Source: Alphaproteobacteria bacterium (lineage in GTDB: Bacteria; Pseudomonadota; Alphaproteobacteria; RF32; CAG-239). From it: 64,000 nucleotides of DNA. Made by a program: the position numbers and the translations under genes. Of this stretch, positions 29,950-49,094 are shown in pieces. Under the pieces are notes generated by a model that did not search any database, had not been told where the DNA came from, and saw only the letters and a list, made by a program, of their open reading frames with translations. The stretch covers positions 688 to 64,687 of the forward strand of contig JAEEYV010000046.1 of assembly GCA_016288295.1 (NCBI GenBank), read 5' to 3'. The first letter of the stretch is position 1; each line of letters opens with the position of its first letter.

Positions 29950-29975
29950 TTTCCAAATAAAAAATATGGTTGTCG

Positions 29976-30047
29976 CAGAGAAGATGTTTTTATAAAACTC
30001 TTCTCTGTTTTTTGTATGCGGCAAATAACAATTTGCCGCATTTTTTG
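29976..30047 (+). terminator. two tandem stem-loops upstream of the terminase small subunit (possible late-operon terminator or antitermination target)
   Basis: cagagaag...cttctctg + T-run; gcggcaaat-aaca-atttgccgc (9-bp perfect stem) + T-run. Confidence 0.5.
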
Positions 30048-30057
30048 TGGAAAAAAT

Positions 30058-31813: not shown

Positions 31814-31845
31814 GTTTTAATCATATTTATGAAAGGAAAAAAACA

Positions 31846-32103
31846 ATGATACAAGCGGTAACGGATCGGGTTTTTATCAAACTCCCGCCCCAAAAAGAAA
31901 CTACCGACGGAGGAATAATAATTCCTAATGACAGACCTAATGAACGCACAATCGGTGAGGTTATTTCGGTTGGCGAAAAAGTTCATTCGGTAAAAGTCGG
32001 AGATAAAGTATTTTTCCATGTTTTTGATGATCTTCCCGGACCGTCAGAAGATGTGATTGTAGTAAGAGAAAACAGTATTTTAGGAGTAATTGAAAATGAG
32101 TAA
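31846..32103 (+). CDS. phage-encoded GroES-like co-chaperonin
   Basis: RVFIKL..ETTDGGIIIP...GEVISVG...VKVGDKVFF...ILGVIE matches the Hsp10 mobile-loop and beta-barrel pattern. Confidence 0.6.
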   Translation: MIQAVTDRVFIKLPPQKETTDGGIIIPNDRPNERTIGEVISVGEKVHSVKVGDKVFFHVFDDLPGPSEDVIVVRENSILGVIENE

Positions 32104-33889: not shown

Positions 33890-33891
33890 CT

Positions 33892-34143
33892 ATGACTTAT
33901 TTCAACAAACAATGGACGGAAGAACTTGTTCTTCCCGATGGAACTATTGCCGTCTGTGTTCAAGATGTTGACCGTTATTTACGTGCCAACAATCTGAGCG
34001 TTGCCGGTGATTATTCGGATGCCTTCCGCCGGACAGTAAGATATAACCGGGAACAGGCGCTTCGCAAAGATTTTTTTGCGGAATTTATCAATAATTATAA
34101 AAGGAGAATATGGAATGCAACAAACCACAAGAGAACTTCTTGA
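33892..34143 (+). CDS. hypothetical phage protein (83 aa)
   Basis: ORF between portal and scaffold. Confidence 0.4.
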   Translation: MTYFNKQWTEELVLPDGTIAVCVQDVDRYLRANNLSVAGDYSDAFRRTVRYNREQALRKDFFAEFINNYKRRIWNATNHKRTS

Positions 34144-34810
34144 ACAGGAGTTTGCCAAGCACAGCGATATGATTTCGCCGACAAACGAAATTCCCGCTGT
34201 TGTTGTTTCTGATGAGCAGTTTGCAGAAGCTCCCGAAGCATATGTTGGAGAAATTCGTGAACTGTTTAAAGGATTACCTCTGGAGGTTCGCAAATATCTG
34301 TATACCAGAGAGGGCGAATTTTCAAAGTCGCTTGAAGAACTTAACGCCGAGGTCAACGCCCGGCGTTTTATTGATGATGCCTTTAATTCAAAAGGCTCAA
34401 AAAGAGGTTTCAAAAACGCCCGAGAGTGGATTGAACACCTTATTTTGGCCGAAGATTTAATTGAGCAAAATCCGGCCGCTGTCTTGCAGTTTTTGGCTCG
34501 TGTATATGGTATTGATATGGGACAGACTGCTAATGCGGATACAGCACATTTCTGTGCTGAAACCAATGCCAAAACAGATGCAGTATTAAATGGCATAAAT
34601 ATGCTGATTGAAAGTGTATCAGCCTTGCACGCTGCATTTGAAGATAAAAATAAACACGAGGCGGAGCTTTTGGCAAAAGCCGAAGAAGCAAAGGCGGCAA
34701 AAGATGCCGCTTTTTCTGTAACCGGACATCGTAGTTCCGATGACGATTACAGTGGTCTTACTACAAGACAAATTCTTGAACGCCAATTTGCACAATTGGA
34801 TGAACAATAA
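34115..34810 (+). CDS. putative scaffolding protein
   Basis: Acidic, coiled-coil-prone, Ala/Glu/Lys-rich; RBS aaggag 8 nt before ATG 34115; located before the capsid gene. Confidence 0.5.
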   Translation: MQQTTRELLEQEFAKHSDMISPTNEIPAVVVSDEQFAEAPEAYVGEIRELFKGLPLEVRKYLYTREGEFSKSLEELNAEVNARRFIDDAFNSKGSKRGFKNAREWIEHLILAEDLIEQNPAAVLQFLARVYGIDMGQTANADTAHFCAETNAKTDAVLNGINMLIESVSALHAAFEDKNKHEAELLAKAEEAKAAKDAAFSVTGHRSSDDDYSGLTTRQILERQFAQLDEQ

Positions 34811-34833
34811 CCAGATCTAAAAGGAAAAAACAC

Positions 34834-35820
34834 ATGGCTAATAATGATTATAATGATATTTTTACAACCACACTCACCAGCCGCAGTGGTCAGCTTGCCG
34901 ATGCCGTTTCCAACAACAACGCATTGTTAAAACGTCTGCAGGAAAAAGGGCATAACCGCATGCTTGCCGGCGGTTCAAAAATTATTGAAGAACTCGAATA
35001 TGGCGAAGGAGATTTGTCATGGTATTCAGGATATGATACCATCACCTACACTCCCAAACAGTTGTTCAGTGCTGCCGAATATTCGTTGAAACTCTGCGCC
35101 GTTCCGGTAGCTATTTCCGGTGAAGAATTGCTTAAAAACTCTGGTCAATATCAGATGATTGACTTGTTTGAAAAACGCATTGAAAACGCTGTCAAAACCA
35201 TGAGCAATAAAATGGCCGAAGCTGTTTATAGCGATGGTACCGGATCTAATGGTAAATCAATCGGCGGTTTAAGTTTGTTGGTAGCCGATTTCCCGAGCAG
35301 CGGTACTGTCGGTAACATCAACCGTGCTACTGCGGGTAACGAATTTTGGCGTAACAAAGCCACAGAACTTACCGGAACCATTACTTCAGACAGCTTGCGT
35401 TCGGCAATGGATTCAATGTATATGTCATTGACCCGTGGTATTGATAAACCTGATTTGATTGTTACTGGCAATGATTGGTATTCATTGTTTGAACAATCAT
35501 TGACAGCTCAACAGCGTTTTGTTGATACCAGATTGGCTGATGCCGGTTTTGAGGCTTTGCGCTTTAAAGGTGCGGATGTTGTTTGTGACGGCGGACAAGG
35601 CGGTTGTTGCCCCGACGGCAAAATGTATTTTCTCAACACCAATTATCTGTATTTGCGTACTCATAAAGACCGCAATATGAAAGTAATCGGCGGTGAGAGA
35701 ATGTCAGTTAACCAAGATGCCATCTACAAAATCATTGGTTGGGCCGGTAACTTAACAATGTCCAATGCAGCTTTGCAAGGCGTTGTATTTACTGATACTA
35801 CTTCGTCAGAAGGTGAATAA
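34834..35820 (+). CDS. putative major capsid protein
   Basis: 328 aa after scaffold; followed by a strong GNRA-loop terminator. Confidence 0.55.
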   Translation: MANNDYNDIFTTTLTSRSGQLADAVSNNNALLKRLQEKGHNRMLAGGSKIIEELEYGEGDLSWYSGYDTITYTPKQLFSAAEYSLKLCAVPVAISGEELLKNSGQYQMIDLFEKRIENAVKTMSNKMAEAVYSDGTGSNGKSIGGLSLLVADFPSSGTVGNINRATAGNEFWRNKATELTGTITSDSLRSAMDSMYMSLTRGIDKPDLIVTGNDWYSLFEQSLTAQQRFVDTRLADAGFEALRFKGADVVCDGGQGGCCPDGKMYFLNTNYLYLRTHKDRNMKVIGGERMSVNQDAIYKIIGWAGNLTMSNAALQGVVFTDTTSSEGE

Positions 35821-35828
35821 TTAAGCAG

Positions 35829-35855
35829 GCGGCGTCAGCAATGACGCCGCTTTTT
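35829..35855 (+). terminator. rho-independent terminator (GCAA tetraloop)
   Basis: 9-bp stem gcggcgtca/tgacgccgc, loop gcaa, T5. Confidence 0.75.
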
Positions 35856-35870
35856 ACTAAGGAGACAGCA

Positions 35871-36455
35871 ATGGATTTTTCAACATTTGAAAAAGTAATA
35901 CATAACAACCAATCGGAAGAAGGGGTAATTGCCCGTTTTTATGATCAAGCAGTAAAAACCTCTCAAATAACCAAAGACGGTCTACCCAAATTTAAATTGG
36001 TTTGTTTTTGTGAAATACGCATAAAAGATAATAGTTCCGAAGTTTATAATCAACCGGCGACACCAGATAAAATCAGACGTTTTCCAAATGAATATGCTCG
36101 TTATAAACAGGCTAAAAAATGTGCGGAAGAAGGTACACCGCTGGAGCAATTTGCATTTTTAGATGCAGCTGAAATTGCCGGTCTGAAAGTGCGTGGAATT
36201 TACACGGTTGAACACCTTACAAAACTTGATGCCGCCCATGCCGAAGAGCTCGGTATTACTAAAGAACGAGAATTGGCAATTAAATTTGTTGAACAGGCCA
36301 AAGGCAATGCATTGCTGGTAGAATGGCAGAAAAAAGAACAAGAATACCAAAAGCGCATTAAAGAACTTGAAGCAAAAGTTGAAAATCTGCAACAACCCAA
36401 AAAAATAAGGAGCAAAGATGAAAAACATACTCGAAATATGTCAAGACGCAGCTAA
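35871..36455 (+). CDS. hypothetical phage structural protein (195 aa)
   Basis: RBS taaggag; coiled-coil C-terminus; the track start at 35841 lies inside the terminator stem. Confidence 0.45.
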   Translation: MDFSTFEKVIHNNQSEEGVIARFYDQAVKTSQITKDGLPKFKLVCFCEIRIKDNSSEVYNQPATPDKIRRFPNEYARYKQAKKCAEEGTPLEQFAFLDAAEIAGLKVRGIYTVEHLTKLDAAHAEELGITKERELAIKFVEQAKGNALLVEWQKKEQEYQKRIKELEAKVENLQQPKKIRSKDEKHTRNMSRRS

Positions 36456-37125
36456 TTTGGCGTGCGTTCAAGAGCCGCAAAGTTTATTCAACAACAGCAG
36501 CCAAAACAATCGTGTTTTTTTGAGTATTGCTAAGGATGCGTTGAATGGACTTTTACGTTACGGAGATTGGCAAGAACTAACTAAAGACGGTGAATTGGTA
36601 ACCGCCAAGGATAAAACCGACTATCTTATCAGAAGCTTTTGTCCCGACTTTTTTCAACTGTTGAACAATACCGTATATATTAAAGATGCACATGAAAAAG
36701 TAATCGGTTCAATCCGTCCAGAACAATGGCAGCATGAAAAATATTTTCATAGCGATGATAACACTATCAAATTTAAAATTCAAAATTCGATGTTTCGTTT
36801 TCTAACGCCACCACCCGAAGGCATAAAAATTGTTTTTCAATATCGCTCATCAGTAGTTGCATATGAAGAAGGAATGTTTACCGAAAAAACCGAAATAACG
36901 AAAGATACCGATATTCCGGTTTTTGATGAATATTTAGTAAAGCTTGCTATTCGTTGGCGTCTTCAGGCCCGTAATGGTTTGGCATATCAAGAAGAATTTT
37001 TGGAATACGAAAATGAATGTCGCAAACGTTTCGGTTCAACTCTTGCCACTAAAGATATACACCTGGGCGGAGGCATTGATTGTATGTCAGATGGAGGAAT
37101 AGCCTATGTTAAACAGAGCATTTAG
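36418..37125 (+). CDS. hypothetical phage structural protein (235 aa)
   Basis: Overlapping operon architecture. Confidence 0.45.
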   Translation: MKNILEICQDAANLACVQEPQSLFNNSSQNNRVFLSIAKDALNGLLRYGDWQELTKDGELVTAKDKTDYLIRSFCPDFFQLLNNTVYIKDAHEKVIGSIRPEQWQHEKYFHSDDNTIKFKIQNSMFRFLTPPPEGIKIVFQYRSSVVAYEEGMFTEKTEITKDTDIPVFDEYLVKLAIRWRLQARNGLAYQEEFLEYENECRKRFGSTLATKDIHLGGGIDCMSDGGIAYVKQSI

Positions 37126-38653
37126 TCGTTCACAAAATTATATTTTACCGGCTCCTGTCGGAGGACTAAACTGTCGCGACAGCCTTGATAATATGTCCGA
37201 AACTGATGCCATTATAATGGATAATTATTATCCATCGGAAACCAATGTTTGTCTACGTGGCGGTTATAAAATATACGCTTTAGAGGGACTAGGACTAAAG
37301 GTCGAAAGCCTTATAACTTTTTCCTCTCCTCAAAATAAACGTATGTTTGCTGCCGCCAATGGCAAAATTATTGATATAACATCTGATAATTATACTGTCG
37401 ATGTTGATAATCTTTATGCAAATAATTGGAATTATGTTCAATTTCGCAATCGTCTTCTTTTGGTCAACGGTATGGACAATCCCTTAACTTATTTCAAAGA
37501 CGGAAACGATGTTTGGACATGGCAACAAACCAATATTGCCGGCGAAGGACTTAATATACGTAATTTATCTAATGTAGCTGTTTCTAAGCAACGTGTTTTT
37601 TATGTTGAAAAAGGTTCTTTAACTTATTGGTATTCATCCAATGTCGGAGAAGTCGAAGGCGTTCTTAATAGTGTTGATCTGTCATCACTAATCAGTCGCG
37701 GTGGCAGCCTTGCTGCCATAGCCTGTTGGACACAGGACGGCGGACAGGGAATAGACGATTTAACAGTTTTTATTACTACTGAAGGAGAAGTTTTGGTGTA
37801 TTCGGGAACTAATCCCGGTAATGCCGATAACTGGTCTTTGCGGGGCAAATATTTTATCAGCCGTCCAATAGGCAATCATTGTGTGATGCAATATCAGGGC
37901 GACATAATTGTAATCTGTGAAGACGGGTATCTTCCTTTGTCATCTGTACTTCCGTTGGGTGAAAGTTCTATAGGCAAAACCGCTTATAGTGATAAGATAA
38001 GAGGATTAGTTCTATCTCGTGTTAGAACAGGAAAAAATATTGCTGGTTGGCAAAGTATCATTTACCCTCGTGGCGGTTATGTTTTATTCAATGTTCCAGT
38101 TGGTGGACAGTTTGAACAACATGTAATTAATATGAGCTCCGGCGCTTGGTGCAGATTTACCAATATATATTCACTTTGTTGGTGCTTGTTTGAAGGCCGT
38201 CTATACTTTGGCTCTGATGGTGGTGTCTATTTGTTTGATGAAGGTCACTCCGACAACGGTGTTGCAATTTGTGGTAATGTTCACCAAGCCTATTGTTCGT
38301 TGGGTACATTAAATCTCAAAAAGATTCAAATGCTCAATCCTCGAACCAAAAGTTCAGCAATCTTCGGATTAAACATTTATACCAATATGGATTTTGATGA
38401 TAAAGAGCAAGATTATTCCGAGAATATTGGCGAAAGCGCAGGCACCAAGTGGAACAAAAGTAAATGGAGCAGTCTTGAACATCCTATAGGAACCAAATGG
38501 TCAACCCTCAAAGGTATTGTGCGCAGTCAATGGATATCCAATAATGCCACGGGATTTAAGGCCTCTCTTGTATTCAAAACCAAAACTAAAGGCAATCTTA
38601 TTGAGTGGTATAATACCGGTTTTCGTTTTGAGCAAGGAGCAGGCATTGTCTAA
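37106..38653 (+). CDS. putative tail/adaptor protein (515 aa)
   Basis: Largest structural gene after the capsid module; no tape-measure-sized gene in the cluster, suggesting a short-tailed morphology. Confidence 0.4.
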   Translation: MLNRAFSRSQNYILPAPVGGLNCRDSLDNMSETDAIIMDNYYPSETNVCLRGGYKIYALEGLGLKVESLITFSSPQNKRMFAAANGKIIDITSDNYTVDVDNLYANNWNYVQFRNRLLLVNGMDNPLTYFKDGNDVWTWQQTNIAGEGLNIRNLSNVAVSKQRVFYVEKGSLTYWYSSNVGEVEGVLNSVDLSSLISRGGSLAAIACWTQDGGQGIDDLTVFITTEGEVLVYSGTNPGNADNWSLRGKYFISRPIGNHCVMQYQGDIIVICEDGYLPLSSVLPLGESSIGKTAYSDKIRGLVLSRVRTGKNIAGWQSIIYPRGGYVLFNVPVGGQFEQHVINMSSGAWCRFTNIYSLCWCLFEGRLYFGSDGGVYLFDEGHSDNGVAICGNVHQAYCSLGTLNLKKIQMLNPRTKSSAIFGLNIYTNMDFDDKEQDYSENIGESAGTKWNKSKWSSLEHPIGTKWSTLKGIVRSQWISNNATGFKASLVFKTKTKGNLIEWYNTGFRFEQGAGIV

Positions 38654-39071
38654 CATAATTTATGATTGTAGCGGGCGGATTGCTCGTTATGTTGCTGGTG
38701 GTTTAAGGCTTGAACCTGACGAACTGTTGAAAGGTTTTTCATTTGCAATTTTACACAATAATAAACTTGTCGGAGGTGTAGCATTTAGTGATTATCATCC
38801 CGATGATTCAGCATGGATAAGTATTTATACAACAGACAAACATTGGTGTACGGCAATTTGTTTAAAGCAAATTTTCGGCATAGCTTTTAATGTTTTAAAT
38901 TGTCGTCGTATCAATGCTCTTATACGTTCGGATAACCATGCCTCAATTTCATTAGCAACCAGATGCGGTTTTGTTTTTGAAGGCAAAATGCGCAAATATT
39001 TTTCAACCGGTCAAGATGCCTTAATTTTAGGTATGTTGGCTTCAGAATGTAAATTTATCAATCATCAATAA
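38647..39071 (+). CDS. GNAT family N-acetyltransferase (moron)
   Basis: Conserved GNAT core (..LVGGVAFSDY.., ..RINALIRSDNHASISLATRCGF..); likely non-ATG start overlapping upstream stop. Confidence 0.55.
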
Positions 39072-39083
39072 CAGGAGAAAATC

Positions 39084-39992
39084 ATGTCTAGTGGATTTAA
39101 AGCAGTGGGAAAACTCTTAGGTGCAGGTAATGCCAGTACATCCCCTTACAAATCAGAAAGCAATATTTTAAATTATTTACAAAATTATAATACATCTAAT
39201 TATGATAATACGGTGCAAAATTTGCTCAATAATGCTTATGATATGAGCAAAAATGTCAATCAGATGAGCAATTATACATATAATATTGATGGCTCTGACG
39301 CAGCCCGTCAACGCGCTGAAAATGCAACATATCAATCATATGTTAATCGTCTTCAACCGCAGTTTGCTCAACAAACAAGTGATCTTGAAACTCGCCTTCA
39401 AAACCAGGGTATAACAGTTGGCAGTGATGCCTACAATCGCGCTATGAGCAATTTGCAGAACAGTCAAAATAATGCGTATAATCAGGCGGCGTATCAGTCT
39501 GTTCTTAATGGTCAAAATGCATTTTCTCAAAGCTTAAATAATGCTGCATTGGCAGCAAATTTCGGCAACAATGCGAAAAACAATTACCTGAGTCAAATTA
39601 TTTCTCAACTGCAATTAGGTCATTCCGGCTATGACAATGCTATGAATATCTACAATGTTCAACATGGTGTTGACAGTAGAATTAGTGCTGCCAAAGAAAA
39701 TAATGCCAACGCTCAAATTCAGGCCGGAAGAGATGCTTTGGGGACGGCAGCTCAAGTTGGAATGTTACTGTTTTCGGATGTTCGTCTGAAGGAAAATCTA
39801 AAACCCGTTGGAAAACTTGATAACGGCCTGACGGTTTATTGTTTCAATTTCAAAGGTAGTAAAACTCCGCAAATCGGTTTGCTGGCACAAGAAGTTATAG
39901 ACGTTATTCCTGAAGCTGTTTATGAAGGTGAAGACGGTTATTTAATGTTACGCTATGATGTGGCGTGCGGTTTACCAACCACAAAGGAGTAA
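39084..39992 (+). CDS. Q/N-rich tail fibre protein with C-terminal S74 intramolecular chaperone domain
   Basis: C-terminal SDVRLKENLKPVG motif typical of Peptidase_S74 autoprocessing chaperone. Confidence 0.6.
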   Translation: MSSGFKAVGKLLGAGNASTSPYKSESNILNYLQNYNTSNYDNTVQNLLNNAYDMSKNVNQMSNYTYNIDGSDAARQRAENATYQSYVNRLQPQFAQQTSDLETRLQNQGITVGSDAYNRAMSNLQNSQNNAYNQAAYQSVLNGQNAFSQSLNNAALAANFGNNAKNNYLSQIISQLQLGHSGYDNAMNIYNVQHGVDSRISAAKENNANAQIQAGRDALGTAAQVGMLLFSDVRLKENLKPVGKLDNGLTVYCFNFKGSKTPQIGLLAQEVIDVIPEAVYEGEDGYLMLRYDVACGLPTTKE

Positions 39993-39996
39993 TACA

Positions 39997-40344
39997 ATGA
40001 CAGGTATGATGACACCGAACGGAATTTTGGTTCGTCAAGGCGACAGTTTTGACATTGCCATGCGTTTTAAGCATAAAGATGGAACACCACTGGATATTTC
40101 TGGTTCACAAGTTTGCCTAGATGTAAAAGATGACGAGGACAACATTATTCTGCATATCAACGGTGATATTACGGATGCAACTAATGGATATGTTGTTATC
40201 AAAATAACTCCACAGCATTCAAATCTAAATGTCGGAACTTATGAAGCCAATATCAAAATTACTTTTGCTAATGGCGATGTACATACGGTGTTTCCGCAAG
40301 ATTTGAGCCAAAATGCAGTATTTCAAATAAGTGAAGGGGTATGA
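39997..40344 (+). CDS. hypothetical tail-associated protein (115 aa)
   Basis: RBS aaggag before ATG 39997. Confidence 0.4.
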   Translation: MTGMMTPNGILVRQGDSFDIAMRFKHKDGTPLDISGSQVCLDVKDDEDNIILHINGDITDATNGYVVIKITPQHSNLNVGTYEANIKITFANGDVHTVFPQDLSQNAVFQISEGV

Positions 40345-40345
40345 T

Positions 40346-41035
40346 ATGACTGAAATCAATATTTTTGAAAATTATGCATCCAAAGAATTTGATGTTTGCT
40401 TTCAAGACGAAGCAGCTCTTAATACCACCGCTGATCTCAAATATGTAAAATATGGGCAAGATGAGATAGATAATTATGTTGCCTCGGTCAGTAAACCTGA
40501 ATTATCAAATTATGTTGATGACCAAAAGCAAGTAATTAATATTGAAACCAATCAATCTATAACATCTATCAGTAATGCCGTTCAGCAAGGAATTGATGAC
40601 ATCAATACAGTCATTGCCGAGTATGATCAGAGTTATATAACCATAGATACCGAGCAAGTCATCACTGGTGATAAAACATTTGAAGGTTCATTGCAAGCAG
40701 TAACTCCTGATGCCGATGATTTATCTCCTTGTGTTGCAACTACAGCTTTTGTTAATGGTGGCAATATTGTCAGTCAGGGAACAAATCATGTCCAATATTC
40801 AGGTGGACTTATTATGCAATGGGGAACAATTGAAGTGAGCAATAGTGCCGGAGAAAATTGTGTTTATGAAATTCCGTTTACATCAAATTCATACGCTATA
40901 TCACTTACACATATCGCTGATGCAGTAACTCCGATAACTTTCTCTACGGCCTCTGTCGTTTCTCACTCATTGACCGGTTTTAGTGTGGGTAGCAACGATT
41001 TAGGAACGTGGTTTTGGTTAGCAATTGGCTTTTAA
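40346..41035 (+). CDS. putative tail fibre / receptor-binding protein
   Basis: 229 aa; position between fibre and lysis genes. Confidence 0.4.
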   Translation: MTEINIFENYASKEFDVCFQDEAALNTTADLKYVKYGQDEIDNYVASVSKPELSNYVDDQKQVINIETNQSITSISNAVQQGIDDINTVIAEYDQSYITIDTEQVITGDKTFEGSLQAVTPDADDLSPCVATTAFVNGGNIVSQGTNHVQYSGGLIMQWGTIEVSNSAGENCVYEIPFTSNSYAISLTHIADAVTPITFSTASVVSHSLTGFSVGSNDLGTWFWLAIGF

Positions 41036-41074
41036 TTAGGGGCAGCAATGCCCCTTTTTTTTACGGAGGAAAAC

Positions 41075-41359
41075 ATGGATTTTATCAATACAATCGGCGG
41101 CATATCAGGCATTGCCGCCTTGGCCGGAATGTTGTGGAACTTGGTCAAATTAGGTTCATGGAAAGGTCGCTTGGAAGAACGTATGGAAGGTGTGCTGCAA
41201 CGCATAGATAAAGCTGATAAAGAAACAGCCTCGGCAATCATGATGCAGAATCAGCAAAACATAATGTTGGCAAAACTTGAAAGCAAATTTGATAGTTTTG
41301 AAACCAAACTTGATCTTTTGTTAAATTGCAAACATAAAGGAGGCAAAAATGTCTCCTGA
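41075..41359 (+). CDS. putative holin
   Basis: Single TM (IGGISGIAALAGMLWNLV) + charged C-terminus; immediately upstream of endolysin; preceded by GCAA-loop terminator (41038-41062) and RBS ggagg. Confidence 0.55.
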   Translation: MDFINTIGGISGIAALAGMLWNLVKLGSWKGRLEERMEGVLQRIDKADKETASAIMMQNQQNIMLAKLESKFDSFETKLDLLLNCKHKGGKNVS

Positions 41360-41789
41360 TGATTGGGATGATTTGCACATAATGGCCGCTACACTATGGG
41401 GAGAGGCGCGGGGCGATGGTATTGAAGGTATGGAAGCGGTTGCCTGTGTGATTGTAAACCGCTTCAATGCCCGCAAATGGTTTACCGGTTATCGTCTTGA
41501 TGACGGCATTAAAATACCCGATGTCAAGCAAACATGCCTAAAAAAATACCAATTCAGCTGTTGGAACAAGACCGATCCAAATTTTTCAAAAATTCTCAAA
41601 TTAAATTCAAGTGATAAAATGTTTTGTTTATGCCTAAAAATTGCTGATAAAGCTATTAGCGGAAAACTTACAGACTTTACCAATAACGCAACCTTTTATC
41701 ACACCCGCAGCATATTTCCAATATGGGCAAAACATCATAGTCCTTGCTATGAAACTACCCATCATCTGTTCTATAATGACATCAAATAA
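41349..41789 (+). CDS. SleB-type cell wall hydrolase (endolysin)
   Basis: ATLWGEARGDG..GMEAVACVIVNR...QFSCW motifs of Hydrolase_2/SleB. Confidence 0.75.
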   Translation: MSPDDWDDLHIMAATLWGEARGDGIEGMEAVACVIVNRFNARKWFTGYRLDDGIKIPDVKQTCLKKYQFSCWNKTDPNFSKILKLNSSDKMFCLCLKIADKAISGKLTDFTNNATFYHTRSIFPIWAKHHSPCYETTHHLFYNDIK

Positions 41790-42292: not shown

Positions 42293-42366
42293 AATAATAA
42301 AACTACTTGGCAAAATACACAAAATCAGCTAATATCACGCTAAAGTTAATTTTAGCGAAGAAAATA

Positions 42367-44130
42367 ATGTTTAAGAAACTTATACAAAAGATTATGTCGA
42401 CTAATCTTGTGGTCAATTATCGCAAGATATTACCGTATGTCAAACCATATTGGATTAGAGCTTTGATTTCGGTTCTAATCACTATTCCGATTGGTTCGAT
42501 GGACGCAGTCATCGCTTGGTCACTCAAACCATACATGGATGTGGTTATGGTTGAAAAATCAACCAATGTTGCCAACTATATTCCGTTGCTGATTATTGTA
42601 TTCAGCTGTTTGCAAAGCTCACTTAACTATGCTGCTACGTATCTCAACACTTGGGTAGGGCGCAAAATTGCCAATGATGTCAAAATGGATTTGTTTGACA
42701 AGTTGATGTTGAACGATGCCCATTATTTTGATACCACTACTTCCGGCAATGTCATGATGCGCTACAATCACGATGTTGATACTGCATGTAACGGCCTGCT
42801 TGCCAATTTAAAATTATTTACTACCCGAGTTTTCTCATCAGTATCATTAATTGCTGTTTTGTTTTATAATTCGTGGCAGTTGGCATTAATTGCCGTAGCA
42901 ATATTATTTGGAGCATTATATCCGCTGACCACTGTACGCAGGCGCATCAAATCGGTTATGGACAAGACTATATTTTCCGGTGCGGCGGTTATGAGCCATT
43001 ATAACGAAACATATAACGGCAATCGTATTATTACCTCATATAATCTGTATGATTATCAGCGCAAGCGTTTTCATGATACACTAAAACAGGTTTTTAAACT
43101 CGGTATAAAAATGGTTCAACGTACCGGTATGATGTCACCGCTGATGCACTTTATTGTATCTTTAGGTATTGCGTTGGTAATCTGGACAGGGAGCTATCTG
43201 ATTGTCCATCATGAAATTACAGCCGGAAACTTTGTTTCGTTTATCACCGCTTTAATCATGCTCTACAATCCGATTAAATCAATCGGTAACAACTACAACA
43301 ATGTCCAGATGTCTTTAATGGCCATGGAACGCATATTTGAGCAGTTGGAAAGAGTTCCATCTATCCATAACTGCGCAAATCCTATAATGTTGAATGGCGT
43401 TAAAGATCAAATTGACTACAAAAACGTATCTTTTTCTTACGTAAAAAACAAACCGGTTCTTAAAAACATCAACTTGTCAATCAAAGTAGGGCAAACGGTT
43501 GCATTTGTTGGCAATTCAGGTGGTGGTAAAACTACATTAGTAAATCTTCTGCCACGATTTTATGATGTCAAATCTGGAGAAGTCCAAATTGACGGTGTTG
43601 ATATTCGCCAATACGATCTCAACTCGTTACGCGATAAAATTGCCATTGTATTTCAGGACAATTTTTTGTTTGATGGTTCAATCCGTGACAATATTTTGCT
43701 TGGCAAAGAAGACGCTACAGAGGAAGAAATCAGCTATGCTGTCAGATCAGCCTGCCTTGAGGAGTTTATATCAAGCCTTGAGAAAGGTCTTGATACCCAA
43801 ATTGGCGAGCGAGGAGTTTTGCTCTCCGGCGGTCAAAAACAGCGTATAGCTATCGCCCGCGCCTTTATCAAAAACGCTCCGATTGTTATTTTGGACGAGG
43901 CTACATCAGCCCTTGATAACAAGTCAGAAGCGGTGGTCCAACAAGCTATCGATAATCTCATGAAAGATCGTACCGTGCTGATTATTGCCCACCGCTTGTC
44001 TACGGTTCGCAATGCTGATAGAATTGTAGTTGTTAACTATGGTGAGATTGTTGAAGAAGGTACGCATGATGAGCTTATTGCTAAAGAAGACGGCGTATAT
44101 TCTTCACTATACCGTAGCCAGATAAAATAG
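42367..44130 (+). CDS. ABC transporter permease/ATP-binding protein (MsbA-like exporter)
   Basis: 6 TM + NBD with Walker A GNSGGGKTT and signature LSGGQKQR. Confidence 0.8.
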   Translation: MFKKLIQKIMSTNLVVNYRKILPYVKPYWIRALISVLITIPIGSMDAVIAWSLKPYMDVVMVEKSTNVANYIPLLIIVFSCLQSSLNYAATYLNTWVGRKIANDVKMDLFDKLMLNDAHYFDTTTSGNVMMRYNHDVDTACNGLLANLKLFTTRVFSSVSLIAVLFYNSWQLALIAVAILFGALYPLTTVRRRIKSVMDKTIFSGAAVMSHYNETYNGNRIITSYNLYDYQRKRFHDTLKQVFKLGIKMVQRTGMMSPLMHFIVSLGIALVIWTGSYLIVHHEITAGNFVSFITALIMLYNPIKSIGNNYNNVQMSLMAMERIFEQLERVPSIHNCANPIMLNGVKDQIDYKNVSFSYVKNKPVLKNINLSIKVGQTVAFVGNSGGGKTTLVNLLPRFYDVKSGEVQIDGVDIRQYDLNSLRDKIAIVFQDNFLFDGSIRDNILLGKEDATEEEISYAVRSACLEEFISSLEKGLDTQIGERGVLLSGGQKQRIAIARAFIKNAPIVILDEATSALDNKSEAVVQQAIDNLMKDRTVLIIAHRLSTVRNADRIVVVNYGEIVEEGTHDELIAKEDGVYSSLYRSQIK

Positions 44131-44139
44131 GATATTGTA

Positions 44140-46404
44140 ATGAAACCAGAACTTCTTGCTCCCGCCGGTGATATTGAGGCCGGATATGCTGCTCTCTATT
44201 ATGGTGCAGATGCCGTATATCTTGGGCTTAAGCATTTTTCTGCTCGTGCCACGGCTACCAATTTTGATGCTGCGGAACTCAATAACTTTGTCGGCTATGC
44301 TCATCATTTGAAACGTCGTGTCTATGTAACTATTAACACCCTTGTGCAAGAAAACGAATTGCCGTCGCTGATTGACAGCCTTGATACTTGTTCAAATTGC
44401 GGCGTTGACGGCATTATTTTGCAGGATTTAGGCGTTGCGAGAATTATCAAATCCCAATATCCAGAACTCGAATTGCATGCCAGCACTCAAATGGCTGTTC
44501 ACAACAAACAAGGCGCATTGGCTTTGCAAAAACTGGGTTTTAAGCGTGTTGTTTTAGCACGAGAGCTCTCTCTTGCCGAAATCAAGGATATCGCCTCAAT
44601 TCCGAACTTAGAAACTGAGGCATTTATCCATGGCGCGCTCTGTTATTCATATAGCGGATTATGTATGTTTTCATCTCTGGAAAGTGGTCGCAGTGCCAAC
44701 CGTGGCAAATGTTTGTATCCCTGTCGTTCGGTTTTCAGCGGCAAAAGTGGTAACAAACACTATTTTTCAATGAAAGACATGGCTTTGCAGGACGAAGTCC
44801 GCAAAATGCCGGTTACATCTCTCAAAATTGAAGGACGTAAAAAGAACGCATTATATGTAGCTGCTGTTACTGATTATTACCGCAATATTTTGGACGGCAA
44901 GGGAGCCATTGCTCAAAAAGAAGAAAACATCAAACAAATTTTTTCACGTCCTTGGTGCAAATTTATGCTTCACGGCAAAGACAAGAGTGTGGTTGATCGT
45001 GACTTTGTAGGCCACCGCGGGCTTCCGATCGGCAAAGTACTACAGATTGTAAACGGAAAACTTATTTTTAAGCCCAATCATAAAATTGCCCGTCATGACG
45101 GTTTGCAAATCGATATTGCCGGACAGGAAAAACCTTTTGGCTTTTCTATCCAAAATATGTCCGTCAACGGGCGCAGAGTTTTTGAGGCTAATGCCAAAGA
45201 CGAAGTGTCAATTAGTTTGCCCCCGAAAAGTCCGGACATTGCTAAAGGACAAAACATCTACCTTGCATCGTCAAGCGAAGTCAAAGGCGGATATAACTAT
45301 GCTCATCCCAAAGACGGAGAATACATTCGCCGCCATGATATAGAGGTTGAAGTTAAAGTAACATCAGATAACATTTCAGCTTTTTGCGGGAATTTCTCTG
45401 CCGAAATAGAAGGCAATTTTGCTAAAGCCGAAGATGCTAGCAAGACTAATGATGCCGCCACTAAAGCCTTTAATAAAACCGGCGATACCGAATTGAGCCT
45501 AAAAGAATTGCACCTCATCAATCCTGACGGTTTATTTGTTCCGGCTTCAATGTTCAATGAGTTGCGCCGCAAGTTATATGCAAAAATCAGTTTTGACGGC
45601 AAACACGGAAATCTGCCTCCGGCTATCAAAGCATGTGCCCATCAACAATCAAAATGGATAGTCCGCACTGATAACGCCGAAAATTTAGCCCTCTTGGACT
45701 TTGATAAACTTGCTGAGATAGAATTTTTGCTCAGCCGTGAAACTAAGGTTGCGGATATCAACAATTTCCCCAAAAATAAGGTCAGATTAGTTTTACCGGC
45801 ATTGGCTCGAGATGCGGCTGCGTGGAAAAATTCTATATCTGCTTTTCTGTCTGCCGGATATAAAAAATGGACTATCGGCAACTGGTGGGGGCTTGATTTA
45901 TTGCCGGAGCAGGGGATAGACTTGAGCTTTGATACCAGCCTTTATACGCTGAATACTCAGGCAATCTCTATGGCCAAAGAGATAGGCGCCAATCGTGTTT
46001 GTCTGTCTTTTGAAGATACATTAAATAATATGCGTACTGTTGCACAAGAGTCGCCATTGCCGGTCGTTTTGCCGGTTTATAGCGATGTGCCGTTGTTCAG
46101 TAGTGCGGTGTGCATTCGTGATAATCCCTGTTCTCAATGCCCCAAGGGTAGCCGTTGGATTGAACTTCATCAAGAAAAGACAACATACTGGGCATTATCA
46201 CGAAATTGTCAAACTTTTGTATTTGATGATCGTCCGCTGTGTTTTGCTGCTGAGGCTGGAGAGATCAAAGCCGACTTCTTGCGAGCCGATTTTTGTTATA
46301 AAAACTATTCTGCACAACAAGTACTGCAAATTTTTGAGCAAATAAGTGCTTTCAAAGATGTTGCGGACTGTGCCAAAGGCAATATAAACAGCTTGGTAAT
46401 ATGA
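44140..46404 (+). CDS. peptidase U32 family protein
   Basis: N-terminal ELLAPAG..AA..GADAVY motif and conserved E..GRKK region of U32 (PrtC-like). Confidence 0.75.
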   Translation: MKPELLAPAGDIEAGYAALYYGADAVYLGLKHFSARATATNFDAAELNNFVGYAHHLKRRVYVTINTLVQENELPSLIDSLDTCSNCGVDGIILQDLGVARIIKSQYPELELHASTQMAVHNKQGALALQKLGFKRVVLARELSLAEIKDIASIPNLETEAFIHGALCYSYSGLCMFSSLESGRSANRGKCLYPCRSVFSGKSGNKHYFSMKDMALQDEVRKMPVTSLKIEGRKKNALYVAAVTDYYRNILDGKGAIAQKEENIKQIFSRPWCKFMLHGKDKSVVDRDFVGHRGLPIGKVLQIVNGKLIFKPNHKIARHDGLQIDIAGQEKPFGFSIQNMSVNGRRVFEANAKDEVSISLPPKSPDIAKGQNIYLASSSEVKGGYNYAHPKDGEYIRRHDIEVEVKVTSDNISAFCGNFSAEIEGNFAKAEDASKTNDAATKAFNKTGDTELSLKELHLINPDGLFVPASMFNELRRKLYAKISFDGKHGNLPPAIKACAHQQSKWIVRTDNAENLALLDFDKLAEIEFLLSRETKVADINNFPKNKVRLVLPALARDAAAWKNSISAFLSAGYKKWTIGNWWGLDLLPEQGIDLSFDTSLYTLNTQAISMAKEIGANRVCLSFEDTLNNMRTVAQESPLPVVLPVYSDVPLFSSAVCIRDNPCSQCPKGSRWIELHQEKTTYWALSRNCQTFVFDDRPLCFAAEAGEIKADFLRADFCYKNYSAQQVLQIFEQISAFKDVADCAKGNINSLVI

Positions 46405-46511: not shown

Positions 46512-46588
46512 GGGTGCGTAGCTCAGTTGGCTAGAGCAACTGACTCTTAATCAGTGGGTCCAGGGTTCGAATCCCTGCGCGCCTACCA
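46512..46588 (+). tRNA. tRNA-Lys (anticodon CTT)
   Basis: Acceptor GGGTGCG/CGCGCCT, anticodon stem ACTGA/TCAGT loop CTCTTAA, T-arm CAGGG-TTCGAAT-CCCTG, CCA encoded. Confidence 0.75.
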
Positions 46589-46596
46589 ATAAAAAT

Positions 46597-46622
46597 AACC
46601 GTCCTTTGGGGCGGTTTTTTTA
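46597..46622 (+). terminator. rho-independent terminator after tRNA-Lys
   Basis: aaccgtcc-tttg-gggcggtt + T-run. Confidence 0.7.
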
Positions 46623-46625
46623 TTG

Positions 46626-46660
46626 GTGTAGAAGCGGATGGGATTTGAACCCTGGAACAA
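46626..46660 (-). repeat. inverted partial copy of the tRNA-Lys T-arm/3' region
   Basis: gggatttgaaccctgg (46640-46655) is the reverse complement of tRNA 46560-46575 at 15/16 positions. Confidence 0.6.
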
Positions 46661-46931
46661 GGGCGTGAGGATAAAAACAACCTCAAAATGTTGTTTTTAC
46701 CGCAAACGGCGAAGTTTGTTTATTGAGCAAGTGAGCATACGCGACCGCGGTGAAATTAACAAACGAGTGACCGAAGCGAGTTGGCGATTGCCCCGCAGTG
46801 CGAGGGCAGAGCCTAGGAGCAAGATGACTACAAGCGAAAGAACATATACTATGGCTGGAACATTGTGTTTCAGCTTTTTTTTATTAACCCGCCGCCCTGT
46901 AACGAGCGGATTTTTTAATGGAGAAAGTCAA

Positions 46932-47663
46932 ATGCCTGACACAACTTATGAATATTTACAAGGTGTTTTTAACGGAGAACACCCGATACAAAGACAAAAC
47001 CCTCAACCAGAGGAAAGTGAATATTATTATATTAATCCTAATCAAAATCCTACCAAGTCTGTAAATGAATTACAAACCACAGATATATCTAATAATATTC
47101 TACAAACATCCGAAGGATTAACAAGTGCCGCCCTAAACGGTCTTTCTGCCGGTTTTGCCGATGAGATTGAAGGCGGAATAAATGGGGCAGGGTATGCGGT
47201 AGGTAATATGTTTGGCAATAATAAACAAGAAAGCATCGGGGAAGCTTTTAGTCGTGGATATAAAGAAGCGCGTGACTATAGACGCAATATCCTAAAACAA
47301 ACCCGCAAAGAGCATCCGATAGCATACGGCATTGCGGAGGGAGTTGGTTCAATAGCTAACCGTGTTCCCCTATTCAAATATTCCAAAACCGCACCATGGT
47401 GGGTAAAATCATCACAAATATATAAAAATAATATTGCAATGTCGGCATTAGACGGATATGGTAATAATGAGAATAACAATGCCAAAGATGTTATTGTTGA
47501 TGCATCGCTAGGCGGAATTAGTGGCGGATTAGGTACATATGGAGGAATGAAAGCTTTTGGCAACAATGTTGAACGTCCTATAATACGCTCAATAATCAAT
47601 AAATTAGCGGGAGAAGGCAAGAATCTTCTACATAATTCTATAAGCAACTACAGAAAGAAATAA
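46932..47663 (+). CDS. hypothetical Gly/Asn-rich protein (243 aa)
   Basis: Start MPDTTYEY after hairpin-RBS cassette; the ORF-track N-terminal extension runs through the GC-rich repeat and is rejected. Confidence 0.5.
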   Translation: MPDTTYEYLQGVFNGEHPIQRQNPQPEESEYYYINPNQNPTKSVNELQTTDISNNILQTSEGLTSAALNGLSAGFADEIEGGINGAGYAVGNMFGNNKQESIGEAFSRGYKEARDYRRNILKQTRKEHPIAYGIAEGVGSIANRVPLFKYSKTAPWWVKSSQIYKNNIAMSALDGYGNNENNNAKDVIVDASLGGISGGLGTYGGMKAFGNNVERPIIRSIINKLAGEGKNLLHNSISNYRKK

Positions 47664-47699
47664 TAAATTGTTAAATCACTCATTTACACAGGGACACCA

Positions 47700-48056
47700 A
47701 TGAAATTTTTTAAAAAAGATAAAAGTATAGTTTTTAGAAATTTTATAAGAGATGCTAGATGTGTCTTATGGATAAATAATATATTCCTAATTATTTATCA
47801 AATAGAATTACATCATCAAAATAATGTGTGGGATACATTCTTTTATTTTTTTGATTTTATGTTAATCGGTTCTTGTTTGACCAAATTTATATATCGCAAA
47901 TTCAAAATCAGAAGACTAAAAAGATACTATGTCTTATTTAGTCAGGTACTCATGTTATTATCAATAATAGGTTTTATACTTTACTGCAAACATACATTAT
48001 CATACCTTACTTATTCCAAACTAGATAATAGATACGTTCCTCTTTTTGATGAATAA
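47700..48056 (+). CDS. hypothetical membrane protein (118 aa)
   Basis: 3 TM, very AT-rich. Confidence 0.4.
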   Translation: MKFFKKDKSIVFRNFIRDARCVLWINNIFLIIYQIELHHQNNVWDTFFYFFDFMLIGSCLTKFIYRKFKIRRLKRYYVLFSQVLMLLSIIGFILYCKHTLSYLTYSKLDNRYVPLFDE

Positions 48057-48153
48057 ATAATTTTATTAAACCCCTGGCGGAAACGATAAGTTTCCGCTTT
48101 TTTATTAACCTGCCGCCCGTAAAATGGGCGGTTTTTTTATTGGAGAAAATCAC

Positions 48154-48972
48154 ATGCCTTTTGATTCACAAGGAAAATTTACCAGACTTCATAACTGGGA
48201 ACAAGATCGTCTTAATGACATCGACATTGTTTCAGACCACGCTGATGAGGAGGATGATAACTTTGCTTCCGGCTTTAATGAAACTTTTTTGCGTGACGGA
48301 CGTGTTGCCATGCAAGGCGATATCAACATGGGAGGACATCGTATAAAAAATGTTGGCAACGCATTGTTGAGCGGCGATGTTGTTACCAAAAGTCAAGCCG
48401 ACAGCATGAGCAACCAGGTCGGAACAAATATCATAACTTTAATTAATGCTCTTCAGCCGGTCGGGGATATCAAGGCCTCGGCATGTTCTTCCAATCATGG
48501 CAATTGGCTGTTGTGTGACGGACAAGAAGTCGAGCGAGAAAATTATCCGGAGTTGTATGAATTAATAGGCACTAAATTTGGTGCCGGCAACGGAGTAACA
48601 ACTTTTAACGTTCCTGACTATCGTGGTAAATTTTTAAGAGGTTTGGGCGGAAATTCAGCTATTAATATTGAAACCACACAGGCCGAAAGTCTACCTGCTG
48701 TTCCCAATCACTACCACCTTATTGCCGGTGCAAAAAGTGGTGATTCTGACACTGTAAGTATTACTGCCAGCAACTATCTATGCCAAGAAGGTGGTGCTTC
48801 CGGTACTCACGCAGTTGCATACCGTCTTAACGGATCTACGACCACGCCGACCAAAGGTCGTACCAGTTCAACTAGTGTATCCAGCGGATTATACAATGGT
48901 TCTCACGTAACCCCGATTAACCAAGCGGTTTATTTCTTTATTAAAGCCAAGTCTGAAGTATTATCCGCCTAA
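48154..48972 (+). CDS. phage tail collar domain protein
   Basis: W.LCDGQ....YPELYELIGTKFGAGNG.TTFNVPDYRGKFLRG = Phage_tail_collar signature. Confidence 0.75.
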   Translation: MPFDSQGKFTRLHNWEQDRLNDIDIVSDHADEEDDNFASGFNETFLRDGRVAMQGDINMGGHRIKNVGNALLSGDVVTKSQADSMSNQVGTNIITLINALQPVGDIKASACSSNHGNWLLCDGQEVERENYPELYELIGTKFGAGNGVTTFNVPDYRGKFLRGLGGNSAINIETTQAESLPAVPNHYHLIAGAKSGDSDTVSITASNYLCQEGGASGTHAVAYRLNGSTTTPTKGRTSSTSVSSGLYNGSHVTPINQAVYFFIKAKSEVLSA

Positions 48973-49094
48973 CAGTAATCCGGCAGTCCTTATGAACTGC
49001 CGGAATTTTATGTGCCTTATTATAAAATATTATTGGTAAAAAAAAGAATGTTTGTGTACTATACAATATATATAATTTTTTGATGGAGGACGAT

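Follow-up and report, generated by a model that had tools for sequence, protein, structure and literature searches.

A putative effector, immunity and tail-fibre locus beside tRNA-Lys in a gut/rumen alphaproteobacterium and its proposed link to a defective Mx8-like prophage

The systems closest to the one described here are polymorphic toxins that are encoded together with phage genes. The MuF toxins, which are predicted to ride in phage heads, are polymorphic proteins encoded in the morphogenesis region of tailed phages and prophages, and they combine a virion-related conserved N-terminal part with variable C-terminal toxins and adjacent immunity genes, as set out in two reports (Zhang et al., 2012, PMC3482391; Jamet et al., 2017, PMC5576092). 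The prophage-encoded Bxa family of the Bacteroidaceae, also from gut bacteria, is described as an N-terminal domain that is shared by diverse toxins, dispensable for toxicity, and accompanied by cognate immunity genes (Alexei et al., 2024, PMC11699363). The carriage of such toxins by virions to other cells is still given there as a prediction (PMC11699363; PMC5576092). Here we analyse a single 64-kb window of an alphaproteobacterial genome (64,000 nucleotides of contig JAEEYV010000046.1, assembly GCA_016288295.1, hereafter the window) together with 115 loci fetched from relatives and labelled L001 onwards. A module at 46.85-49.0 kb of the window, located downstream of a tRNA-Lys gene, encodes a protein of 243 amino acids (aa), a 118-aa small membrane protein and a 272-aa protein with a tail-collar domain. 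With moderate confidence, we interpret this module as an effector, immunity and fibre locus that serves the defective Mx8-like prophage at 27.8-41.8 kb.

The locus is best filed as a new variant among the prophage-associated polymorphic toxin systems, for which MuF provides the nearest concept. It resembles the MuF and Bxa systems in its polymorphism, its linkage to phage genes, its conserved N-terminal part followed by variable C-termini, and its adjacent immunity-like genes. It differs from MuF in the absence of a MuF domain, in the short N-terminal domain (about 55 aa, matching no Pfam family; hereafter the N-domain), in the Gram-negative gut/rumen alphaproteobacterial host, as opposed to a Firmicute, and in the envelope-targeting toxins (Tlde1, GH108, lysozyme, VgrG3-C-like). 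Furthermore, the phage is defective and stands at a fixed chromosomal site, whereas the toxin array is partly detached from it and travels with a fibre gene. Bxa is distinguished by its N-domain, its toxin (an ADP-ribosyltransferase) and its phylum, and no shared sequence was found. Literature searches returned no published description of the present toxin-fibre system, and a modular link of polymorphic toxins to fibre genes is not mentioned in the accessible portions of the related literature on prophage toxins.

The U32 peptidase encoded beside the module is 98-99% identical to that of two rumen metagenome-assembled genomes (MAGs), L001 (RUG10691, 'Rhodospirillales') and L002 (ruminal_MAG_253), and 57-79% identical to that of about 78 further gut 'Alphaproteobacteria/Azospirillum sp.' MAGs. 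The DNA flanking the module is merely 76-87% identical between the window and L001 or L002, thus these two genomes represent related species and not strains of the source organism. The proteins of the msbA and U32 genes (window 42307-46404) are 94-99% identical to their L001 and L002 counterparts, while the adjoining genes on both sides reach only 62-91%; this excess is explained either by very strong conservation of the two genes or by a recent exchange of the segment.

The 243-aa protein is rich in Gly and Asn (11.5% of each), as the original prediction had it, and its N-domain heads a family of proteins with exchangeable C-termini. Three proteins of L001 are 91-94% identical to it over residues 1-53 and divergent thereafter; one of them, of 222 aa, is a Tlde1/YkuD protein (PF10908, E 6e-9). 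Proteins P0124-P0126 likewise combine the N-terminus of the window protein with different C-termini. A word-indexed search of 5.8 billion proteins returned only six relatives (clusters) of the 243-aa protein, all with the same N-terminus, and an exhaustive HMMER search, run besides for this protein, returned 127 relatives. One group of the latter matches residues 1-55 only, at about 45-50% identity, and is fused to SAA-like, Tlde1, GH108, phage-lysozyme and VgrG3-C-like domains. A second group matches residues ~55-240; it comprises proteins of 200-340 aa, several of which have the N-terminal motif ..FNG..PIKRxNPxxGxSxYYY (hereafter the N-motif), as well as the N-terminal parts of 450-950-aa proteins, one of which ends in an ADP-ribosyltransferase domain. 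All recognisable toxin domains act on the cell envelope. A domain that recurs in the toxin position is recognised by the Pfam SAA (serum amyloid A) model, in most cases with a score that does not exceed the cut-off, by way of a motif like D(K/N)Y.H..(G/I)N(Y/C).A(A/Q)(Q/R)G (L001 13317-13889; L081 2783-3466; L084 875-1657; proteins P0185 and P0186); it may be an uncharacterised bacterial effector domain.

The next gene encodes the 118-aa protein, whose description as a membrane protein is borne out by one strong hydrophobic segment at residues 75-101 (Kyte-Doolittle) and two weaker ones recognised by eye. It has only three homologue clusters among the 5.8 billion proteins, and its 42%-identical paralogue in L001 follows a variant of the same toxin domain. 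An apparent homology to the immunity-like proteins of L081 and L106 was discarded as not significant, being a weak match in the second jackhmmer round against a tiny database.

Comparison of the relatives revealed variable arrays of such gene pairs. Between tRNA-Lys and the collar gene, L001 encodes, in this order, a deleted variant of the window's 243-aa protein, a 112-aa membrane protein, a 190-aa protein, a 118-aa protein that is 98% identical to that of the window, the 222-aa Tlde1 protein, and a 100-aa membrane protein. Each toxin gene is followed by a small open reading frame (ORF) for a membrane or signal-peptide protein. The array of L002 holds a frameshifted toxin. A different shared N-terminus is fused to GH108 or SLT domains in L005, and each of these genes is again followed by one for a signal-peptide or membrane protein. 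The position of the arrays varies as well: they are located between U32 and tRNA-Lys in L005 and L007, where the collar gene is kept in the phage cluster; directly after the endolysin gene in L081, where at least five such proteins are encoded and the collar gene lies inside the array; and within the structural operon in L082-L084, where two toxin families are present and the content differs between contigs with identical collar proteins. The same strain-level polymorphism is observed among L110/L111, L112 and L113, which share an identical collar protein (P0001) and differ in array content. Several assemblies break exactly at the cassette that precedes the collar gene (see below). Two places in the structural operon appear as fixed insertion places for toxin-immunity modules (L082-L084, positions 2283-3960 and 7032-8953; L086, about 5300), the first after the homologue of the window gene 35841-36455 (or between the portal and scaffold genes) and the second between the acetyltransferase and S74 fibre genes.

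In L106 (positions 10001-13696), the gene for P0130, a distant effector homologue with the N-motif, precedes six paralogous genes, whose products measure about 100-113 aa and show three hydrophobic segments apiece; the contig ends inside this array, which has the look of an immunity-gene array.

Two of the features by which polymorphic toxins are recognised (Zhang et al., 2012), namely a shared N-terminal region with unrelated C-terminal domains, and strain variation with truncated toxins and orphan immunity genes, were found in this family; the third, a downstream immunity gene that co-varies with the toxin, is seen in the gene arrangement only. We therefore regard the 243-aa and 118-aa genes, with good confidence, as a putative effector-immunity-type pair of a polymorphic family. 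The original prediction had proposed a tail-fibre-derived adhesin or a bacteriocin-like locus, with the 118-aa protein as a possible immunity partner of the collar protein. The bacteriocin-like reading was right in spirit and the 118-aa protein does look immunity-like, but the roles had been assigned to the wrong proteins: the effector-like protein, and the partner of the 118-aa protein, is the 243-aa protein.

The enzymes in these arrays could also be viewed as parts of alternative lysis cassettes of the prophage, in which GH108, SLT and lysozyme proteins followed by small membrane proteins would represent endolysins and holins. This explanation is hardly credible, since the cluster already has a Hydrolase_2-type endolysin with small membrane ORFs upstream of its gene, the proteins paired with GH108 enzymes have a signal peptide or a lipoprotein signal, unlike holins, and Tlde1 and the p57-like domain described below are not lysins. 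A common N-domain of 55 aa is also not known from endolysins.

The effector-like domain of the window protein appears to be related to a phage structural protein. The 243-aa protein is without a Pfam match at E <= 0.01, hence no MuF (Phage_Mu_F) domain is present and the N-domain is unmatched; the NCBIfam models and the anti-phage defence models of PADLOC have no match for any of the three module proteins, nor for several of the cluster proteins. The 243-aa protein matches phrog_5880 (E 7e-7), and its AF2 model is all-alpha (pLDDT 74.8). A Foldseek search of BFVD with this model returned uncharacterised phage proteins of 650-750 aa (E 9e-4) and the Mx8 protein Q94MR2, a 'virion structural protein' (probability 0.82). 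An hhalign comparison of the family profile with Mx8 p57, which has the same length and name as the Q94MR2 match, gave a probability of 96% (E 4.6e-9) over an alignment that covers the invariant motif G-x-s-x-G-x-x-D-E-I-x-G. In Mx8, the syntenic structural module closes with the p57 gene, which has no counterpart in the window's cluster. Thus, the collar fibre and the p57-like protein encoded at tRNA-Lys represent two functions that are expected of the particle encoded by the cluster. The C-terminal domain of the 243-aa protein derives, in our reading, from a virion structural protein and is probably active on membranes, the only indications of the latter being Gly-zipper-like motifs and the membrane partner. 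The fold of a colicin or another known pore-former was considered for it and found no support, as no solved structure matches.

The similarity to the N-terminus of p57 and to 450-950-aa phage proteins is shared ground with another explanation, by which the 243-aa protein would be a phage ejection (pilot) protein and the 118-aa protein a superinfection-exclusion membrane protein, with the two acting in infection and exclusion among phage-like elements and not in killing. The several paralogous small membrane proteins encoded after the effector homologue of L106 would fit this explanation, and phage P22 offers a parallel in SieA, which acts on ejection proteins. SieA is presented as an inner-membrane exclusion protein in a report on it (PMC10461980). 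However, the same N-domain is found on peptidoglycan-attacking enzymes with periplasmic immunity-like partners, a pattern of interbacterial effectors, and the window element has neither replication nor integration genes and therefore no infection cycle to exclude. We consider exclusion rather improbable and retain the effector-immunity interpretation of the pair.

The third protein of the module contains the tail-collar domain recognised by the original prediction, with a score well above the cut-off (residues 104-161, E 2e-20, 72.9 bits versus 24). Its matches among solved structures are the long tail fibre 8kec and T4 gp12 (1ocy), with which the collar domain and the following His-containing region align. 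In distinction from these fibres, the protein is short, its N-terminal 60 residues are specific to the phage lineage, and its gene lies outside the structural operon. Over 116 collar homologues, conservation amounts to 63-78% at residues 1-60 and 76-83% at residues 141-180, and falls to 14-15% at residues 181-240; the closest relatives show no change before residue 80 or 92. A conserved N-terminus and a hypervariable region 181-240 constitute the anchor-plus-variable-tip pattern of a receptor-binding fibre. The collar protein is widespread in the clade (655 homologues), whereas the 243-aa and 118-aa proteins are close to lineage-specific.

The genomic position of the collar gene links it to the phage cluster. 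In seven related genomes (L004-L007, L011, L028, and L032; U32 62-70% identical), the collar homologue (47-61% identical) has the S74 fibre gene on one side and the 39955-40344 homologue on the other, and the same slot inside the cluster is occupied by a collar homologue in L082-L085, L087, and L088. In the window, the S74 fibre gene and 39955-40344 abut, and the single collar copy is the one at 48154 (tblastn). A collar gene after tRNA-Lys was found only in the window, L001, and L002, and the module is missing from L003 (U32 79% identical), where U32 and tRNA-Lys are followed directly by a flavodoxin gene. The collar gene of the module is thus most simply explained as a displaced fibre gene, and we consider it very probable that it is the fibre of the neighbouring cluster, relocated or re-acquired. 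The orthologue position, the shared N-terminal anchor and the absence of a second copy in the window are consistent with the protein being a structural component of the predicted cluster particle. The collar protein is therefore not stand-alone, as had been supposed.

Neither is the module isolated from other phage genes: contrary to the original prediction, which saw no other phage genes nearby, terminase, portal, head, tail, fibre and endolysin genes occupy 30.0-41.8 kb, and only 4.7 kb separate the end of their cluster from the downstream tRNA-Lys gene. In its major head protein, the cluster shows 27-47% identity to Myxococcus phage Mx8, Bradyrhizobium phage ppBjS10J-1, Stenotrophomonas phage BUCT555 and Brucella podophages, and the gene order is that of the Mx8 structural module, from p44 to p57. 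The region 27.8-41.8 kb contains no integrase or replication genes and no collar gene. L001, L002, L004-L007, L011, L028, and L032 (U32 62-99% identical) have a cluster in the corresponding position, immediately before msbA-U32, and the identities of its proteins are comparable to those of the adjoining msbA and U32 proteins; in L003, where the module is missing too, the 8 kb read upstream of msbA contain no cluster. The distant IMG/VR contigs L090 and L093 keep a phage early region with genes for a CI repressor, an HNH protein, a methylase, and a resolvase. Thus, true phages of this lineage exist, and the window copy is defective or domesticated.

Structural genes alone, at a conserved site across diverged hosts, are what characterises gene transfer agents (GTAs) of any type, and this was found here. 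An RcGTA-like head-tail gene set was not found in the cluster, whose major head protein and gene order match Mx8-type podoviruses. We predict a GTA-like or PBSX-like domesticated element. Two putative regulatory genes precede its structural genes. Homologues of the CI/LexA-type repressor are encoded upstream of the large terminase gene in the IMG/VR relatives L087 and L089, and the gene for the 170-aa DUF6456-like protein is kept in this position in L087-L089. DUF6456 is an annotation on homologues of GafA, the RcGTA activator, in the report on it (PMC9638019), and the 170-aa protein is a candidate late-gene activator.

Two features of the element recall RcGTA, namely a structural cluster of phage origin that has no replication or integration genes and occupies a conserved chromosomal site, and a fibre gene away from the main cluster; the gene just upstream matches the GafA family weakly, below the Pfam cut-off. 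The tail-fibre and head-spike genes of RcGTA also lie at separate loci. The structural genes of the Mx8-like podovirus type and the CI/LexA-like repressor set the present element apart, and no toxin cargo is known for RcGTA. PBSX-type killer particles and tailocins, which kill non-immune relatives with a specificity set by exchangeable fibres, similarly consist of domesticated phage structures under a phage-type repressor. They kill through the particle itself, without separate polymorphic effector-immunity cassettes, and tailocins have no capsids, whereas terminase, portal and capsid genes are kept here.

The toxin and fibre genes of the module are connected by a duplicated cassette. The original prediction had reported a shared cassette of ~60 nt upstream of the genes at 46932 and 48154, both of which start with MP; the sharing and the MP starts stand, and the cassette is longer, namely about 85 nt with two tandem terminator-like hairpins (A and B) before the ribosome-binding site (RBS). 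The pattern TTTATTAACCNGCCGCC has exactly two matches in 64 kb versus 0.03 expected, and the repeated segments pair 46852-46880 with 48075-48103 and 46876-46937 with 48098-48159. Terminator-like sites number nine in the module versus 2.1 expected. The stem of hairpin A is preserved between copies by a compensatory T-A to G-C exchange. Hairpin B has the tRNA-Lys terminator as its prototype and shares with it an identical 3' half, GGGCGGTTTTTTTATTGG: the terminator stretch 46609-46626 is 100% identical to 48126-48143 and 83% identical to 46904-46921 (find-repeats family D3). The cassette recurs in the relatives: it precedes the collar gene in both L001 and L002 and, in addition, the Tlde1 toxin gene of L001 and the first toxin gene of L002; directly upstream of the first toxin gene of L001, the tRNA-Lys terminator itself acts as hairpin B. 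In the L082 lineage, an unrelated cassette of about 110 nt, with two hairpins, an RBS and the first 11 codons (MSKSIGKLLGG), is doubled before a toxin gene and the S74 fibre gene. The recurrence of the same design with different sequences argues for a function, and the suggestion of a shared regulatory signal is supported in so far as the cassette is real and recurs. We propose that the cassette supplies homology for adding, deleting or swapping modules upstream of the fibre gene; it may also place the genes under a common control by read-through or antitermination, for which no antiterminator was identified. Such terminator-RBS cassettes would constitute a simple and testable device for module exchange.

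Several observations weigh against the interpretation of the module as a locus serving the prophage. The msbA, U32 and tRNA-Lys genes stand between the two; the collar gene may have been acquired horizontally instead of being relocated; several terminators precede the fibre gene, which is odd for a structural gene unless antitermination exists; and the 243-aa protein has no significant fold match in the PDB (best E 1.3). Furthermore, Tlde1 and the VgrG3-C-like domain are, by their Pfam names, classic effector domains of type VI secretion systems (T6SS), and P0130 of L106 is encoded next to housekeeping genes (those for H+-pyrophosphatase and Lpt proteins), the 10 kb upstream being free of phage genes, thus the linkage of effectors to the cluster is not universal. 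The last two observations, and the arrays of L005 and L007 that lie apart from a collar gene kept in the cluster, are what would be seen if the effectors were ordinary polymorphic toxins exported by a T6SS or by another system that recognises the N-domain, while the fibre gene, still serving the particle, had landed in a recombination hotspot at tRNA-Lys with no functional relation to its neighbours. Export of this kind is unlikely in view of the toxin-immunity modules that are embedded in the structural operon (L082-L084 and L086) or abut the endolysin gene (L081), the 5' cassettes common to toxin and fibre genes in each of two lineages, although the cassettes of one are unrelated in sequence to those of the other, and the homology of the effector domain to a virion protein. 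In addition, the N-domain relatives are all of 72-341 aa, and none is fused to PAAR, VgrG or Rhs. The toxin domains are those of T6SS effector-immunity pairs (Tlde1, C-terminal domain of VgrG3), and the strain-variable truncated toxins and orphan immunity genes are those of orphan arrays of contact-dependent inhibition (CDI) and Rhs systems; yet the locus has no PAAR, VgrG, Rhs or CdiA carrier, its genomic partner is a phage cluster, and its recombination homology is located at the 5' side (cassette and N-domain), not at a pre-toxin motif. On this evidence, service to the prophage remains our preferred reading of the module.

The region between the tRNA-Lys terminator and the first cassette is occupied by a small structured non-coding element on the minus strand. 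The succession of tRNA-Lys and terminator is confirmed, and so is the inverted copy of the tRNA T-arm region reported behind them: positions 46559-46575 and 46640-46656 match over 17 nt with 94% complementarity, and a single gap lengthens the match to 29 nt, of which 23 are identical, up to the acceptor end CTAC..CCAAT. The terminal segment of the element, 46627-46661, is thus a diverged inverted copy of the tRNA-Lys 3' end. The GC-rich degenerate repeat that had been reported next could not be reproduced, as TRF finds none there and a repeat search finds no internal family (46.66-46.85 kb); one minus-strand element of about 210 nt accounts for both features. It is absent from L001, compared with which the window has an insertion at about 46627-46850, and L002 contains only the first ~38 nt of this insertion. 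Its middle part is matched at 71-74% identity in L013, L016, and L018. A covariance model (R1) built from these three copies and that of the window finds at least 13 further copies in relatives, nearly all of them about 100 nt from the 3' end of a tRNA-Val, tRNA-Lys or tRNA-Asn gene. The copies run co-directional or convergent with the tRNA gene, some stand in tandem, and each terminates in a duplicate of the 3' end of its neighbouring tRNA. In the R1 alignment, which had been fitted to the model, 93.6% of cells are paired versus about 50% with slid partners, and compensatory changes occur in 23 of the 26 pairs; an unfitted RNAalifold of four sequences gives compensatory changes in 9 of 34 pairs. 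No Rfam 15 family is significant for 46627-46840, the best overlapping matches staying below half their gathering scores. A transfer-messenger RNA (tmRNA) was considered for the GC-rich stretch and rejected: the permuted-tmRNA match of Rfam (21.5 bits versus a gathering score of 47) rests on the tRNA-Lys T-arm, ARAGORN calls no tmRNA, and inspection of four homologues shows no conserved tag frame. The element could be a small RNA gene dispersed together with tRNA 3' ends, or else a miniature element that relies on an integrase directed at tRNA genes, and as such it is a candidate for a new RNA or mobile-element family.

These observations bear on the suggestion, made in the original prediction, that the module could be left over from a second element integrated at a tRNA gene. 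Its attraction is the position of the module directly 3' of a tRNA gene, the inverted and diverged tRNA-Lys 3' end at 46627-46661, and the absence of the module from L003. Nevertheless, no integrase or recombinase is encoded among the ORFs at 46.5-52 kb, and no direct repeats of the tRNA-Lys 3' end bound the module, the sole tRNA-like copy being inverted and located at the tRNA-proximal border. This fragment belongs to an element that accompanies many tRNA genes where no such cargo is present, and it is missing from L001, which does have the module; the collar homologues are vertically conserved parts of the neighbouring cluster, and the arrays of the relatives are found on either side of tRNA-Lys or inside the cluster. 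An intact element with an integrase and these genes between direct repeats was not seen among the 115 loci. A separate mobile element as the source of the three genes is thus very improbable, and the description is apt only for the ~210-nt element itself. The coordinates of all features are given in Table 1.

Table 1. Features of the tRNA-Lys module, the structured element and the phage cluster (positions refer to the window unless a locus label is given)
Feature	Position	Strand	Evidence and remarks
tRNA-Lys gene (anticodon CTT)	46512-46588	+	ARAGORN; Rfam RF00005, 69.8 bits; kept beside the U32 peptidase gene in relatives
tRNA-Lys terminator hairpin	46597-46626 (hairpin 46597-46616)		Terminator scan; flanking A-run and T-run, could act in both directions
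Small structured non-coding element	46627-46840	-	Insertion versus L001, L002, L003; extent judged from flanks of related copies
Conserved core of the element: long-range helix and 14-bp terminal hairpin	46662-46790	-	Covariance model R1, 128.8 bits
Further core copies, about 130 nt	L007 18044-18173; L012 8159-8290; L013 10765-10897; L014 8282-8418
Further core copies, about 130 nt	L016 1607-1735 and 1766-1900; L018 65-198; L025 6339-6468
Cassette copy 1	46852-46937	+	Hairpin A 46853-46875, T-run, ATTAACC, degenerate hairpin B, T-run, RBS GGAGAAA 46920-46926, ATGCCT; repeat families D1, D2, D4
Gene for 243-aa effector-like protein	46932-47663	+	Residues 1-55 N-domain; ~58-243 all-alpha Gly-rich domain akin to Mx8 p57 N-terminus
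Gene for 118-aa small membrane protein	47700-48056	+	Hydropathy; immunity-like partner of the 243-aa protein
Cassette copy 2	48075-48159	+	Hairpin A 48076-48098, hairpin B 48112-48132, T-run, RBS, ATGCCT; repeat families D1, D3, D4
Gene for 272-aa tail-collar fibre	48154-48972	+	PF07484 Collar; tail-fibre PHROGs
Terminator-like hairpin closing the module, bidirectional	48979-49004		Terminator scan, both strands
Gene for CI/LexA-type repressor (HTH_3 and Peptidase_S24), divergent from the cluster	27834-28538	-	Pfam
Gene for 170-aa protein, weak DUF6456 (GafA-family) match	28645-29157	+	Pfam, E 5e-4, 20.6 bits, below cut-off 26.3
Mx8-like podovirus structural and lysis cluster	30016-41789	+	PHROGs; Pfam S74; Mx8 synteny
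Small terminase	first gene
Large terminase	30467
Portal	32090
Scaffold-like	34076
Major head	34834-35820
204-aa protein	35841-36455
Tail	36418
515-aa p52-like protein	37106		PHROG 'amidase'
Acetyltransferase	38517
S74-chaperone fibre	39084-39992
129-aa protein	39955-40344
Second fibre	40331
Endolysin	41349		Hydrolase_2 type

The surroundings of the cluster were inspected as well. The interval 22.0-25.5 kb contains the host genes ruvAB and tolQR, and three ORFs at 25.5-27.8 kb match no family. A 393-aa ORF with a Phage_lysozyme domain (19681-20862, E 2e-12) directly follows tRNA-Gln (19248-19321), and after it comes a small beta-barrel-like ORF on the other strand, with no integrase. An intact prophage integrated at tRNA-Gln (19.2 kb) was therefore rejected, since the ORF after tRNA-Gln has a lysozyme domain and is not an integrase gene, and ruvAB and tolQR lie within 22-27.8 kb; thus, the phage-derived part begins at about 27.8 kb. 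Between the GafA-like and small terminase genes, a very AT-rich kilobase (29000-30041, GC 27.6%) contains many promoter-like sites, and a strong terminator-like hairpin (30016-30041) extends over the start listed for the small terminase ORF. Locus L085 (MT835830.1, 16998 bp, 'Bacteriophage sp.', human faeces, Mexico, unverified) consists of essentially only the cluster, from the small terminase to the endolysin gene, with the collar gene in place, a second collar-like gene, and a 2.3-kb insertion between the large terminase and portal genes.

Taken as a locus serving the prophage, the module suggests the following scheme. Upon induction, the cluster would make capsid-tail particles into which the N-domain proteins would be built; the collar fibre would pick the target cells, the effector would be ejected into the envelope of the target, and the membrane immunity protein would shield kin. 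We put forward only tentatively that the effectors may be loaded through the N-domain into the particles of the cluster and ejected into target envelopes. A wider generalisation, that a domesticated Mx8-like podovirus particle of capsid, short tail and fibres, governed by the CI-like repressor and perhaps by a GafA-like activator, might be a contact-independent effector-delivery device of gut/rumen Alphaproteobacteria, with loading of small envelope-targeting toxins by the N-domain, an exchangeable collar fibre and shuffling by the cassette, is speculative and in our view rather doubtful. If true, it would be the first case of a capsid-bearing phage relic, as opposed to a tailocin, an extracellular contractile injection system (eCIS) or a T6SS, serving as a vehicle of polymorphic toxins in Gram-negative bacteria. 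The locus offers a clean test case, since the phage element comprises structural, lysis and regulatory genes only, the effectors share a short recognisable N-domain and travel with a receptor-binding fibre, and one effector domain is homologous to a virion protein. If delivery by particles proves true, capsid-bearing relics would join the known bacterial weapons, there would be a selective reason for keeping such relics in the genome, and the strain-level variation of these abundant uncultured gut/rumen Alphaproteobacteria would find an explanation.

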